From contig CAXXVO010000004.1 of the NCBI GenBank assembly GCA_963422645.2, forward strand, positions 320,001 to 384,000: a stretch of 64,000 nt of DNA. The letters are read 5' to 3'. Positions 13,654 to 18,952 of the stretch are shown here, piece after piece. The notes beneath the pieces were generated by a model, which saw only the letters and a list, made by a program, of their open reading frames with translations, made no database searches and was not told the DNA's origin. Made by a program: the position numbers and the translations under genes. The stretch comes from Alphaproteobacteria bacterium (GTDB lineage Bacteria > Pseudomonadota > Alphaproteobacteria > UBA828). How positions within the stretch are numbered: the stretch's first letter is position 1; each line of letters opens with the position of its first letter.

Positions 13654-15239
13654 CAATGGCATTCACTTAGCGGTTTTCGACTGTTCACTTAAGGAGTCGT
13701 GTTCTTGCGCTGTCGGTTGCGTGCGTTTCTGTCGTTCAGGTGTTCAGGCGACGGCCCGCTTTGCGCGTGCCCACTTGCCGCGGGGTTTGCGCGACCTGCG
13801 TTCGCAGGACCGGCCGGGGTGCGGGCGCTGACGCGCCTGGTTGATGCAGGAGAGGACATGGCTGAGGGTTTCGGCGACCATCGCCGTATGGCGCAGCAGC
13901 AGCGCTTCGAGGTTGCGCGCGACGGTGGCGAGGCCGTTGCTGAAGTTGGCTTTCATCGCCGGCTTGCCGTCGGCAGGGCGCTCGGCGTCGAGGCTTGCGT
14001 TGCTGCGGTTGGTGAAGAGCCGGGTCATGGCGATGAGGTTGAAGTGGGCGAAGAGCTCCTGGCGGACGCCGCGCTCGGTCTGGCTGTGGAAGGCCTCGAC
14101 GGCCATGGCCTGTTTCGAGGTCTTGTAGAGTTCCTCGATTCCCCAGCGCGCGTGATAGAGCTCGGCCAGTTCCGCGACGCTCCAGGCCTTGGGGTCGAGG
14201 AGGGTGGTGGCGAGGATGAAGACCGTGCTGCCGATGCGGTAGCGGACCAGTCGCAGGCGCAGCGGGGTGGCGTCGACGTGCGGCGTCTTGCGGCGCAGCT
14301 TTCTCAGGGTGTCCTTTCCGGGAGCGACGGTGATCGGCGCGTCCGTGCGGCCGTCGGCGATGAAGGCGTCGAGGGCGGCGCCTGCCTTCTTCTTGATCCG
14401 GAACACGGGGTGCAGGCCGCGGGCGACATGGGCGTGCAGCATCTCCCAAGAGTAGTAGCCGCGGTCATAGACCACGATGTCGTTGGCCGAGAGCGCCTTG
14501 AGGTGGGCGAGGGCGGCCCTTCTTTCGTCGCCGTGCGCGACCAGGTCGAAGTCCACCGGGATGTTCGCGTGCAGCCGGTAGAGGCAACTCAGCAGGCCCT
14601 GCGGGTAGTGGGCCGCCTCGGAGGGCGTGCGGTAGCCGGCCTTGAGCAGCGGCCGCGGCAGGTTGAGCTTGGAGCCGTCGACCGCGAACACGCGGTGGCC
14701 CTTCCAGGCCGGGCCGTCGGCGCGCTTGAGGATCTCGGCGTGCAGCGTCTTGAACACCGCCTCGTCGACCTTGGCCCGCGCCATGCACATCGCCGAGGCC
14801 GAGACCGGCGCCGGCTGCGGCAGTGCGACGCCCAGGACCCGGCACTGCTCCCACAGCCCGGCCAGCGTCGTGGCGTAGCCCGCGCGGCCGTTCGAGAACG
14901 CCAGCCGGAAGATGAAGAGCATGACGAGAAGGGTGTCGAGGACCCGCCGGCGGCTCTGCCACACCCGGTCGTGATCGGCGGCCACCGCCGCCAGTGCGCC
15001 GATCAGGTCCTGCCACAGCGCCACGAAGGGATCGTCCGGCGCCAGCGCTGCCGGCCGTGTCCTGTTCCCGCGCCGCGCCGGCCGCGGGCCTTCGAGCAGG
15101 ATCGAGCGGAAGTCCGGCGTCAGCGGGTAGACGTAGACGCTTTTGCGGGTCTTGCCCTTGCCGCCCCCGGTCTCGCCGAGACAGCGCCAGTTGGCCGCGC
15201 GGTAGCAGGCGCCGTCGAAGAGGCTGGGGTCCACGAAGG

Positions 15240-15698
15240 TCTCCACGAACGTCACAGACTACTATCTTGCAGGCTTCCGAGGCTCCTGAGCCCGTTCGCA
15301 TTCGACGCTACAAGCATCCTTTCGACGGTGAGGCGATCGAGATTCTCGATCGGCGCAAAGGAGGTTACGGGGGCCGGACTCTGAAGGTTCGGATGCCGGA
15401 CGGCAGCTGTTGTTGGATACCAGCGGCATGGACGAGCCTTGGAGCCCGTCCCGAGGATGCACCACGCCTGATCGGAGAGTTGTCTGATTTCCTCACCCTC
15501 CTTAATCTTCTGAATGACCTTGATGAGAGGGAACTCAGGCGCGATGGATGCGGAGCAGGAGTTGGCGCTGATCGCGCTGATGGAGTGGGAGGAGCGCCGG
15601 GACCGGTGGCTGGCGTTTCCGGCTCCGGACCGGGATCGCGTCGTGCAGGGTCTGGCCGATCTGATGGTTCGGATTGCGGATCGGGAGGCGGCCGATGA
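15240..15698 (+). CDS. DUF5372 / Y4bD-Y4pK-like small protein lacking a good start in the integrated state
   Basis: VRI....HPFDGE.IE........G......MPDGS..WIPAAWTS motif; only an RBS-less TTG (15267) lies upstream of the motif inside the element; stop TGA overlaps the LSR ATG. Confidence 0.65.
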   Translation, partial: SPRTSQTTILQASEAPEPVRIRRYKHPFDGEAIEILDRRKGGYGGRTLKVRMPDGSCCWIPAAWTSLGARPEDAPRLIGELSDFLTLLNLLNDLDERELRRDGCGAGVGADRADGVGGAPGPVAGVSGSGPGSRRAGSGRSDGSDCGSGGGR

Positions 15699-15735
15699 CG
15701 GTCGATCCGTCGAAGATCACCCAGCGTCATCTTGA
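15544..15735 (+). CDS. Small hypothetical protein overlapping the DUF5372-like ORF and the LSR start
   Basis: 63 aa with W.AFP..DRDRVVQGLADLM.R helix, of the kind seen upstream of such recombinases; purine-rich leader. Confidence 0.5.
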   Translation: MDAEQELALIALMEWEERRDRWLAFPAPDRDRVVQGLADLMVRIADREAADDGRSVEDHPASS

Positions 15736-17875
15736 GCGTCTTGCAGTTGTCTACGTTCGCCAGTCGACACCCTTGCAAGTGAACGCGCACCAGGAATCGC
15801 AGCTGCGCCAATACGCGCTTGGCGAGCGTGCCCGGGAGATTGGCTGGCCGGCCGAGCGGATACGGACGATCGACGCCGATCTTGGCGAGAGCGCAAGCGA
15901 GAAGGCGCGCGGCGAGCGTGGCGGCTTTCGGGAGATGTGCGACCTGATCGCCCGGGACCATGTCGGGGGCATCTTCGGGATTGAGGTTTCGCGGCTCGCC
16001 AGGAACACGATGGAATGGTTTCAGCTTCTCGATCTATGTCGCAGGCACGACACGGTTCTGGTTGAGGACTGCCACATCTACTGCCCGAGCCGGGACGACG
16101 ACTCCCTTGTCCTGGGGATCAAGGGAACCGTGAGCGCCGCTGAGCTGTCTCTTATTCGCGCCCGGATGGAGGGCGGAAAGCGGAACAAGGCGCTTCGTGG
16201 CGAGTTGTACTCGCGCGTTCCGATCGGATTTGTGCGGGATGGCTCGACTTTGCGGAAGGATCCGGATGCCCGGGTTCAGGCGGCGATTGCAACGGTCTTT
16301 GCGCGTTTTCGGCAAGCCGGTTCGGCCCGCCAGGCGACGATGCTGCTGCGTGAGGCGGGCGAGGATGTTCCCTCTCGCCGGCACCCGGGGGCAGCATTGG
16401 AATGGGGCCCGGCGCGCTATGAACGGGTGTACCGCATCCTCACCAACCCGGCGATGGGCGGCGCCTATGCCTACGGCTTCAAACGCGGCGTTGGTCACGG
16501 TGCGCCGCTGCGGCCGGTCCAGGAGCGCTGGGATATTCTTCAGCCGGAGAAGCATGAGGGATATGTCAGTTGGGCAGAATGGCTTGAAGTACAGGAGCAG
16601 CTGGCCCGCAACCACATGGCTCCGGACGGAGCCCGCGGCGCGGCGCGGGAAGGGTCGGCTCTGCTCCAGGGTCTCGCGGTCTGCGGCGGCTGCGGATTGC
16701 CGATGACCGTCTACTACAGCAAGACGGGCTGGGGGTATGAGTGCCGCAAGCGCGATGCTGCGCGCCGGCGCGGCGGTTGTTGGTCGACAGGCGGCAAGCG
16801 CGTTGATGCGGAAGTTGCCCGTCTGTTTCTCGATGCGGTCACGCCGGCGGGGGTGGAGGCGGCCCGGCAGGCGGCTTGTGATGTTGCTGAACGCGGCCTG
16901 CGCGCGTTGCGCCGTTGGGAGCTGGATCTTGAGCACTGCCGGTACGAGGCGCGGCTTGCCGAGCGGCGCTACAAGCAGGTCGATCCCGACAACCGTCTGA
17001 TTGCGGCAACGCTGGAGCGCGAGTGGGAGAAGGCGCTTCGCGCCGAGAAGGCTGCACAGGAAGCGCTTGAGGCGGCACGGGCGCGTCAGCCCGCGGCCCC
17101 TGCCCCGGCGGTTTTCGAGGGTCTCGGCGCGCGCCTGTCGCAGGTCTGGGGGGCGTCGTCGACGACCATGCGCGAGCGCAAGCGCCTGCTCGCCTGCCTC
17201 CTCGACGAGGTGACGATCGAGCTTGCGCGACAGGAGCGTGAGATCATGGCAACATTGCGCTGGCGTGGCGGGCAGATCGACGAGATCACTTTGCCGATGC
17301 TCGCGGGCTCTCCGACACCCCGGCGCGATGAGCGCAGCACGGTCGAGCTCGTGCGCAAGCTGTCATGCTTTTACAACGACCGGGAGACCGCGAAGGTTCT
17401 CACCCGCCAGGGACGGCGCACAGCACGGGGTCTGGATTTCACGGCCGAGCTTGTTGGCAGCCTGCGTCGCCGCCATGGCATTGCGCCCTACCAGCCCGAC
17501 GGGGACGAGCCGGTGCTCATGGGCGTTGCCGATGTGGCGAAGGAGATCGGAGTCTCGGATGACACCATCTATCGCTGGATCCGCGAGGGGCTGGTTCCGG
17601 TTGCCCAGCCCGATATCGAAGGTGCTCCTCTTCGGATCCGGATGACCCCGACCTTGCGCGAGCGCTTTCGTGAGGCGCCTCCGGAGGGGTTTGTTCCCCT
17701 CGCTGTGGCAATGGATCGTCTGGGTGTCACGCGGCAGACGGTCTGGGAACGGATCAAGGCGGGCAGGCTGGACAGCTGCCATGTGACCCGCGGCAAGACG
17801 CGCGGACTGTATGTGCGTTTGCCGGTCGAGGACGAACTGCCGCTGCTGCGCGGGCTCAACGGTGATGGGGGGTGA
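15695..17875 (+). CDS. Large serine recombinase (Y4bA-like) with C-terminal HTH domains
   Basis: GGAGG RBS; catalytic YVRQST, SRLAR, recombinase domain (ILTNPAMGGAY), zinc ribbon CGGC...YEC...C, coiled coil VDPDNRL, two C-terminal Xis/MerR-like HTHs. Confidence 0.95.
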   Translation: MTVDPSKITQRHLERLAVVYVRQSTPLQVNAHQESQLRQYALGERAREIGWPAERIRTIDADLGESASEKARGERGGFREMCDLIARDHVGGIFGIEVSRLARNTMEWFQLLDLCRRHDTVLVEDCHIYCPSRDDDSLVLGIKGTVSAAELSLIRARMEGGKRNKALRGELYSRVPIGFVRDGSTLRKDPDARVQAAIATVFARFRQAGSARQATMLLREAGEDVPSRRHPGAALEWGPARYERVYRILTNPAMGGAYAYGFKRGVGHGAPLRPVQERWDILQPEKHEGYVSWAEWLEVQEQLARNHMAPDGARGAAREGSALLQGLAVCGGCGLPMTVYYSKTGWGYECRKRDAARRRGGCWSTGGKRVDAEVARLFLDAVTPAGVEAARQAACDVAERGLRALRRWELDLEHCRYEARLAERRYKQVDPDNRLIAATLEREWEKALRAEKAAQEALEAARARQPAAPAPAVFEGLGARLSQVWGASSTTMRERKRLLACLLDEVTIELARQEREIMATLRWRGGQIDEITLPMLAGSPTPRRDERSTVELVRKLSCFYNDRETAKVLTRQGRRTARGLDFTAELVGSLRRRHGIAPYQPDGDEPVLMGVADVAKEIGVSDDTIYRWIREGLVPVAQPDIEGAPLRIRMTPTLRERFREAPPEGFVPLAVAMDRLGVTRQTVWERIKAGRLDSCHVTRGKTRGLYVRLPVEDELPLLRGLNGDGG

Positions 17876-18952
17876 CCATGCCCGGACCGTCAGGCAAAAC
17901 GCCCGATGCAGATCCGCACCTCCAACGTGCGATACTGGAAAATCACGTCCGGCACGATGTAAAGGTCGCCGCGGCGGCAACAACGGAATCCAAACCGCCT
18001 TTTCTATCAATGCGGTAGAAACGCCCGCCCACCTGCACAACGGAGAAGCATTATGAAGCCTTCATCTCCACCAGAACCGGGCGCGCTCCGAAGCGCGCCT
18101 CCCAGTCGCCGGGCAGCTGGCGCAGCGCCATCGACAGCGCTTTCGACGCCAGGTTGTCGACCCGGACCCAGGGAAAGATCAGGAAACGCGTGTGACCCAC
18201 GACCAGATCGAGGTGCTTGCGGAAGCCTTCCGCCGGCCACCCGATCCACTCGTCGCGGCAGGGCAGCGTGCGCGACGCCCGGGCAAACAGAAGGCAGCCC
18301 AGAGGCCGCCCGTGGCGGTCCAGGAGAAAATAGCGCAGATGCGCGCCGACCAGACGATGCAGCCCGAGATAGTGGTGGCGCGCGACGAACTCGTTCCACA
18401 GCCCGCCCTCCTCCTTGCCCGCCGCAATCGACAGGCGCAGCGGCATCAGCGCGGCCAGGTCCTCCGCGATCGCCGCGGCCGGCGCCGTCCGCTCGCTCCG
18501 GGCCATCGCCTCCTGCGGCCCCCGCACCTGCGCCTCGTCCCGCGCCGGCAGGGTCAGGATGCCCAGCCGCTCCAACTCCTCCAGCATCCGCAGGCAGACC
18601 GCGACACGGTTCCGCCCGCTCGGCGCGCGCCAGTTCAAATGCTCGCAGATCGTGTGCCCGAGCTCGTTGCGGCTGATCGCCGGAAACAGCGCCACCGTCT
18701 CCTGGATGTCGGCAATCTGCCGGCGGGTCAGACGTCTGCCGAAAAAGGTCGTCGACTTCAGCGCGGTGATGCGGGGGTCCATGGGCCGGCTCCACTGACA
18801 GGGGGACAGCCACAGTGTGCCAAAGCACACGCCGCCGGTCAATCCCCCTCGTGCGGGAAACGCCGAGACCGACAATCCACACAAGAAATCAACTCGTTAC
18901 GACACCACCAAAAAAACCCCGGAACAATCTTCGCGCCAAATGAATGCCATTG

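Follow-up and report, generated by a model that had tools for sequence, protein, structure and literature searches.

A mini-element of 2825 bp encoding a large serine recombinase (LSR) probably carries its attachment site (attP) inside the 5′ coding region of a gene for a putative recombinase cofactor, with the recombination state of the element setting the synthesis of that cofactor. The element occupies positions 15240-18071 of the window, by which we mean the whole stretch of DNA analysed: 64,000 nucleotides from an Alphaproteobacteria bacterium of the UBA828 lineage (GenBank assembly GCA_963422645.2, contig CAXXVO010000004.1, positions 320,001 to 384,000). It is inserted in the transposase gene of an insertion sequence (IS) and bears, on the + strand, a small DUF5372-like open reading frame (ORF), then orf2, then the LSR gene. 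The small ORF is the gene that is split, its ribosome-binding site (RBS) and ATG standing at the right end of the element and its body at the left end. The ends of the element, the in-frame split and the conservation of the split among relatives were established by computation.

Ends of the element and the split start

The seven bases TCTCCAC stand at both junctions, at 15240-15246 on the left (attL) and at 18065-18071 on the right (attR), as a check of the sequence confirmed. Across the 23 contigs of the window genome we found the same left end ten times and the same right end 11 times, with seven copies of the element free of interruption; the left ends lie in four types of flank (6, 2, 1 and 1 instances). 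Thirteen copies of the target IS are empty, and comparison with them shows that the flanks of the element overlap by exactly the seven shared bases. The element also occurs in three diverged relatives of this IS, where the right junction reads TCTC followed by GAT and the left junction TCTC followed by CAC. Since only TCTC is common to these junctions, the crossover falls within TCTC (15240-15243) and the CAC at 15244-15246 is owned by the element; the sequence of the joined ends is thereby fixed, whichever dinucleotide is cut. The ends of the window element are genuine recombination ends. They have the form of LSR-type ends: the same short core stands at both junctions and the target is not duplicated, the overlap being seven bases at empty sites and four (TCTC) in diverged targets.

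The right end holds a translation start (18042..18068, + strand) that consists of GGAG at 18042-45, 7 nt, an ATG at 18053-55, and then four codons and one base up to the end of the TCTC core. This ATG lies 16 nt before the core end and, across the joined ends, is in frame with the DUF5372-like ORF, the frame being open. The left end provides a leader of about 23 codons and the body of the gene (15244..15560, +), with the frame open to 15698 and without a start linked to a Shine-Dalgarno (SD) sequence; SD linkage was judged by the same loose rule throughout, for right-end ATGs and internal candidates alike. A first-pass annotation of the window had described this layout, and the letters agree with its reading of GGAG-7 nt-ATG leading into the TCTCCAC core and of the left end at 15240 as lying in the frame of the ORF. 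It had also called the ORF start-less, which holds for SD-linked starts; an in-frame TTG without SD is present (15267..15269, +), the sole canonical start upstream of the domain inside the left end. Further upstream, the four flank types carry in-frame stops 27 to 321 nt away and only chance starts, none of them with an SD. The right-end start is retained at the loci L009 and L010. Under the loose rule, a given 20-nt stretch of the window genome has a chance of about 0.018 of containing an ATG with an SD on the right strand and in the right frame. A single element is therefore only suggestive, and the weight comes from its relatives.

The split start in related elements

Matches to the LSR family were found in 10 out of 49 genomes of the order, all in one genus and often in multiple copies, and in 456 plasmid records. 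The first-pass annotation had proposed comparing homologues for a right-end RBS and ATG in frame with the left-end ORF. An SD-linked ATG 13-27 nt before the core end, in frame with the DUF5372-like ORF, was present in all 16 copies checked, from 11 lineages whose LSRs form 7 clades with at most 45% identity and range from Alphaproteobacteria to Streptomyces. An in-frame ATG, GTG or TTG is altogether absent from the left end in 8 of 14 copies (5 of the 11 lineages). In the remaining six lineages no internal candidate satisfies the SD rule, whereas every right-end ATG does. The earlier proposal that the gene is whole only across joined ends was thus borne out, both by the 16 in-frame copies and by the five lineages without an internal start.

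The ends were set by at least two contexts in six lineages, four of which were also defined by empty sites. The former comprise the window element (many copies and 13 empty sites), G042 (3 contexts and an empty paralogous site, core CG), G038 (2 contexts sharing TTGTA, without an empty site), Mesorhizobium plasmids (3 contexts and an empty group II intron gene, core AA), Pseudomonas and Mycetohabitans plasmids (4 contexts) and Sinorhizobium meliloti plasmids (3 contexts and an empty ISRm2, core CA). Searches inside single plasmid records of Pseudomonas, Mesorhizobium and Streptomyces turned up only partial copies, and the ends in Pseudomonas and Mesorhizobium come from comparison across records. 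For single copies in Bradyrhizobium, Polaromonas, Burkholderia savannae, Azospirillum oryzae and Streptomyces the ends were derived by homology or from a rebuilt target gene, in Streptomyces from the rebuilt gene alone. The junction count omits G045 and G043 (LSR repeat blocks of 5-6 kb without a DUF5372-like ORF), G046 (no DUF5372-like ORF; the left end has an HTH, or helix-turn-helix, gene that brings its own ATG) and L015, L028 and L022 (ORF present in single or truncated copies with no defined ends).

Twenty metagenome loci from the S. meliloti/Polaromonas clade had both ends present, and in all 20 an SD-linked ATG lies -1 to +17 nt from the LSR stop. In 18 of them both ends carry the same dinucleotide where the crossover is predicted, including four loci at which it is not GC, with a fixed 27-nt spacing in frame; this crossover position was chosen post hoc, the first guess having matched at 8 of 20 loci and a one-base shift at 18.

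Across the lineages the ATG mostly lies 0-25 nt past the LSR stop or overlaps it. Such a position is typical of translational coupling and could mean that the right-end start serves the integrated state, either producing an outward fusion or leader peptide or serving only for re-initiation and so stabilising the LSR message at its 3′ end. The outward frame in the window is open for 207 codons. In Mesorhizobium, however, it stops after a few codons, and the flanks into which it would read differ between copies and lineages (IS of several families and group II intron genes, in both orientations), so that no outward product is conserved. Neither version explains why the frame matches the left end, and we consider this use of the start extremely improbable.

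A second alternative is that the right-end SD and ATG are incidental or belong to the recombinase site, that the protein is made from an internal start in the integrated state, and that the frame is inherited baggage. Its DNA-site part is favoured by the near-fixed distance of the ATG from the core. In four lineages part of the leader keeps both its DNA sequence and its distance from the core, as an LSR binding site would, so that conservation alone is no proof of translation. In-frame internal candidates exist in six of the 11 lineages, namely the TTG at 15267 in the window and GTG, TTG or ATG codons 2-7 codons before the domain in five others, and PGAP annotates the GTG as the start in Streptomyces; a shorter protein could therefore come from integrated copies. 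Many database proteins of the family likewise begin right at the domain. These points weigh against the split start. On the other side, five lineages have no internal candidate, and no candidate elsewhere has an SD. The letters of the SD and the spacer vary among lineages and the SD-ATG function is maintained. Counted from the Met to the first motif of the domain, the leader ranges between 21 and 32 codons without any loss of frame, and hence several indels have preserved the frame. Finally, very distant members of the family share a short conserved motif of residues immediately before the domain, with variable sequence further upstream, which indicates that the protein begins upstream of the domain. 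We therefore regard an internal start with an incidental right-end ATG as unlikely and retain the split start as the probable arrangement.

Related LSR elements without a DUF5372-like gene (L021, L029, L037 of G046) have a left end that begins with an HTH gene carrying its own ATG, and the G042 element (L019 693-1190) has both an HTH gene and a DUF5372-like gene. The split start is tied to the DUF5372-like gene and not to the LSR as such.

The DUF5372-like protein and its predicted interaction with the recombinase

The only Pfam match of the window protein was DUF5372 (PF17342), at 18.3 bits (E 0.0023) and 19.7 bits with a cut-off of 25, aligned to profile positions 6-76. Relatives in two lineages pass this cut-off, from G042 (74.6 bits) and from Pseudomonas (26.5 bits). 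The DUF5372 label of the first-pass annotation is upheld for those two; the window protein, below the Pfam cut-off, is classed here as DUF5372-like through alignment and profile search and not through the gathering cut-off. No NCBIfam match was found for the small ORFs.

A homologue search with the window protein alone recovered nothing. A profile built from six family proteins detected 3731 cluster representatives at E ≤0.001, 689 of them at ≤1e-10. Among 150 family representatives the called N-termini were erratic, some lying at the domain and others following extensions of 10-180 aa. In 14 annotated plasmid loci the small ORF had been called once, from the internal GTG in Streptomyces; orf2 and the LSR gene had been called regularly (the PLSDB tables are incomplete).

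The AlphaFold2 model of the small protein is a small beta-barrel followed by a long helix, with a predicted local distance difference test (pLDDT) value of 82. Foldseek detected nothing significant in the PDB (best E 0.13), and the top matches were SH3-, Tudor- and chromo-like barrels. Modelled together with the LSR, the small protein gave a complex score of 0.68, compared with 0.00 for the best of three controls. The mark for this score was reached by 58 out of 80 solved complexes and by 2 out of 110 mismatched pairs; since the complex was modelled from our own alignments, these counts apply only approximately. The complex runs share at least 59% of contacts, and the partner has a pLDDT of at least 61. 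The modelled interface joins LSR residues 331-334 (zinc ribbon), 381-394 and 466-528 (flanking the coiled coil) to the C-terminal helix of the partner. According to this model the small protein most likely binds the LSR at the junction of zinc domain and coiled coil, as a putative cofactor resembling a recombination directionality factor (RDF). According to PMC12286644, RDFs contact the coiled coil, the second DNA-binding domain or both, and structure prediction locates known RDFs at that same junction.

The recombinase gene and orf2

The LSR gene (15695..17875, +) encodes 726 aa with Resolvase, Recombinase, zinc-ribbon and excisionase-like HTH regions. Resolvase (PF00239) matched at 62 bits (cut-off 23.3) and Recombinase (PF07508) at 41 bits (cut-off 21.1); Zn_ribbon_recom, at 24.1 bits, fell just below its cut-off of 25.3. 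The nucleophile-serine motif aligns in all 13 LSRs compared. Cysteine pairs are found at 330-333 and 350/362, followed by a long helical stretch at about 395-465, a coiled coil as read from the sequence. The ORF is intact in integrated copies (six copies, with 736-codon open frames and no stop). Residues 608-649 form a C-terminal excisionase-type HTH (HTH_17 39.9 bits; TIGR01764 28.2 bits, cut-off 28.8), a feature that is unusual among phage-type serine integrases.

The stretch between the DUF5372-like domain and the LSR gene bears on a further claim of the first-pass annotation, that the small ORF is translationally coupled to the recombinase through an ATGA overlap. The overlap itself is there, the frame of the small ORF ending in a TGA that overlaps the LSR ATG (15695-15698), and in 8 of the 13 copies examined no more than 2 nt separate the end of the frame from the LSR start; in two relatives it stops 30-80 nt earlier. 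The coupling drawn from it is probably incidental. Between Pseudomonas and Mycetohabitans, substitutions in the domain show an excess at third positions (31 vs 17 and 14; 28 vs 18 and 9), whereas the tail of the small ORF shows none (7-8 at the third position vs 12-14) and gives no clear single-frame signal. This tail is occupied by orf2 (15544..15735, +; an earlier ATG at 15514 is possible), which lies in another frame and ends 41 nt inside the LSR gene. Homologues of orf2 are coding sequences of 52-60 aa annotated as "hypothetical protein" directly before the LSR gene in plasmid records; orf2 had no match in Pfam or NCBIfam. Because the conserved orf2 fills the tail and overlaps the LSR start, translational coupling to the recombinase more likely runs through orf2.

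Joined forms and the proposed mechanism

We suggest that in this element the LSR drives a minimal IS-like transposon whose attachment site falls inside the 5′ coding region of its first gene. The right end, just past the LSR stop, would supply the RBS and the ATG together with the opening four to nine codons, and the left end the remainder. In the integrated state the gene body would be severed from its start. With the ends joined, in an excised circle or a head-to-tail tandem, the gene would be complete and would directly follow the LSR gene, so that the circle would form one continuous cyclic operon. Cofactor supply would be set by the recombination state, the protein being made from the circle and switched off upon integration, and the cofactor could bias the LSR toward insertion of the circle or against re-excision. 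Here we infer the direction of the effect, the promoter and the trigger of the first excision. Tentatively, the arrangement may amount to a self-resetting directionality switch, in which an RDF-like cofactor comes on at excision and goes off at integration and direction is set by DNA topology, not by a regulator.

The small ORF could not be served by a promoter that spans the junction, because its RBS and ATG are located on the upstream side of the core. A candidate site for an outward-reading promoter is the spacer between the LSR stop and the RBS (17876..18041, +), which is unique to the window lineage and is retained in L009 and L010. In this lineage the ATG lies 177 nt and the core 190 nt beyond the LSR stop. 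The spacer contains an ORF of 48 aa (17872-18018) whose GTG start overlaps the LSR stop. A scan of the spacer against Rfam gave only a chance-level match.

It is also conceivable that the joined form that matters is a head-to-tail tandem, or a pair of adjacent related elements, and not a free circle. Two metagenome contigs, L127 (2406-2705) and L139 (2909-3208), have the order LSR1, SD-ATG, DUF5372-like ORF, orf2, LSR2, and in L127 the ATG and the ORF are in frame. In L139, however, they are out of frame, and the 10-11 ends in the window genome include no tandem; LSR transposons, such as Tn4451, are moreover known to move through circles. We consider a tandem as the relevant form very unlikely. 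An interpretation of L127 and L139 as simple tandems was rejected, as each holds two different LSRs. They represent either a two-recombinase element or an element inserted at the end of another.

Several further points weigh against the proposed mechanism or against the data behind it. The existence of the circle and the translation of the joined ORF are predicted from the sequence. In four contig-assembled runs (X1, X2, X4 and X5) the empty-site joint 15239-18065 was present in all, and no joint from right end to left end was found, but contigs drop rare forms; no overlapping termini were found among 80 metagenome loci. A scan of the + strand of the integrated sequences with a sigma-70-like consensus detected no promoter inside the elements, the spacer included. 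A cofactor made only after excision is the reverse of classical RDF logic. Structures of LSR-RDF complexes have reportedly been solved, and the pass of the complex model may partly reflect likeness to them. Most relatives of the small protein lie below the DUF5372 cut-off, and the G038 and S. meliloti/Polaromonas clades have no match to it. As to the comparison of lineages, these share ancestry, so that the 11 cases are not 11 independent trials; the ends in five lineages rest on a reconstructed target; an empty target copy was looked for in G038 and none was found; the core-match test failed at 2 of the 20 metagenome loci; and the LSR-ATG-DUF5372 arrangement of L139 is out of frame.

Target genes and other copies

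The window element lies antisense to the interrupted transposase gene, which combines a DruA-like N-terminal domain with DDE_Tnp_1. The C-terminal part of the gene (13744-15246, -) matches DDE_Tnp_1 at 76.3 bits, and the N-terminal part (18065-18884, -) carries the DruA-like domain (PF14236, 97.7 bits). The target, represented in the window at 13744-15255 and 18051-18884 (-), is a multi-copy IS with 13 intact copies, and at least six copies hold the LSR element at the same codon; the homologous position is likewise occupied in the three diverged relatives. Several copies of the element in the window genome (G000) are interrupted or truncated by other insertions (C5:27525-34201, C8:597481-601429, C5:441762-447299 and C13:38950-41704), and the LSR is broken into two frames in two copies (C5:428733 and C8:743332). 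Contigs of runs X2 and X4 carry an LSR variant that skips 92 bases (window 17409-17502) and has a cluster of substitutions at 17282-17394. In these samples it constitutes a second and diverged type of copy.

In every lineage examined the element is inserted in a conserved coding motif of another mobile element, usually antisense, and in sense orientation in Streptomyces. The targets include group II intron reverse transcriptase genes (L044, L043, L081 and L045), IS66 transposases (L080, L083 and L084), and IS3-type (L082) and rve-type (L020) transposases. The family gives the impression of parasitising mobile elements. In a contig of 2830 nt (L166), the element is flanked on its left by 18 bases that are the exact reverse complement of the 18 bases on its right, which points to a palindromic target, to insertion in both orientations or to an assembly artefact.

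Comparison with known systems

LSRs are leading tools for genome insertion, and control of their direction is an active question. If the proposed mechanism is true, recombination would itself assemble and dismantle the gene for the cofactor that controls it; this would amount to a natural toggle of compact form and would offer recombinase circuits a new principle of design. The split layout would also account for a very large protein family having been left uncalled, or called with erratic N-termini, in databases, and a widespread, uncharacterised class of IS-like elements that parasitise other mobile elements would thereby be defined.

The RDFs of large serine integrases include gp3 of phiC31 and SprB of SPbeta. 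Like them, the DUF5372-like protein is small, is encoded beside the LSR and is predicted to bind at the junction of zinc domain and coiled coil. Unlike them, it has no sequence likeness or significant fold likeness to a solved protein, and its supply is predicted to be highest after excision.

In Tn4451, Lyras and Rood are said to have described, in 2000, a junction promoter on the joined ends that drives the recombinase gene. Tn4451 resembles the window element in being a transposon moved by an LSR with expression that depends on the joining of its ends. However, what is assembled there is a promoter and the gene served is that of the recombinase, whereas here a complete RBS and start would be joined to the body of an accessory gene, an arrangement that requires no junction promoter and in which none was seen. 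The circles of IS911 and other IS3 elements also form a junction promoter. They share with the window element a circle-specific boost of transposition functions, but they have a DDE transposase and their junction builds a promoter, not a gene.

For ICEclc (Pcirc) and ICEKp1 (P3'end), PMC13023037 reports promoters that depend on the state of the element and lie at its far end when it is excised. These are similar in that a 5′-end gene comes under the influence of a 3′-end signal in the excised circle alone; they differ in having tyrosine integrases, in belonging to large conjugative elements, in acting by transcriptional control and in having the attachment site outside coding sequence. The "suicidal" integrases (SSV1-, pTN3- and pT26-2-type), whose gene is split by integration, are described as restricted to Archaea in PMC8371274. 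They too have the attachment site inside a gene of the element that is whole only in the circle. There, however, the gene split is that of the element's own tyrosine recombinase, whereas in the present elements, which are bacterial, the LSR gene stays intact and it is the start of the putative cofactor gene with four to nine codons that is separated. The attachment site of the window element accordingly lies outside its recombinase gene, unlike the site that defines the "suicidal" integrases.

A literature search that did not cover subscription journals found no paper mentioning DUF5372 and no description of a gene start and body split across the ends of an LSR element. Circle-dependent expression by means of promoters and the splitting of archaeal integrase genes are known; the new feature here is the split start of an accessory, RDF-like gene in a bacterial LSR transposon.

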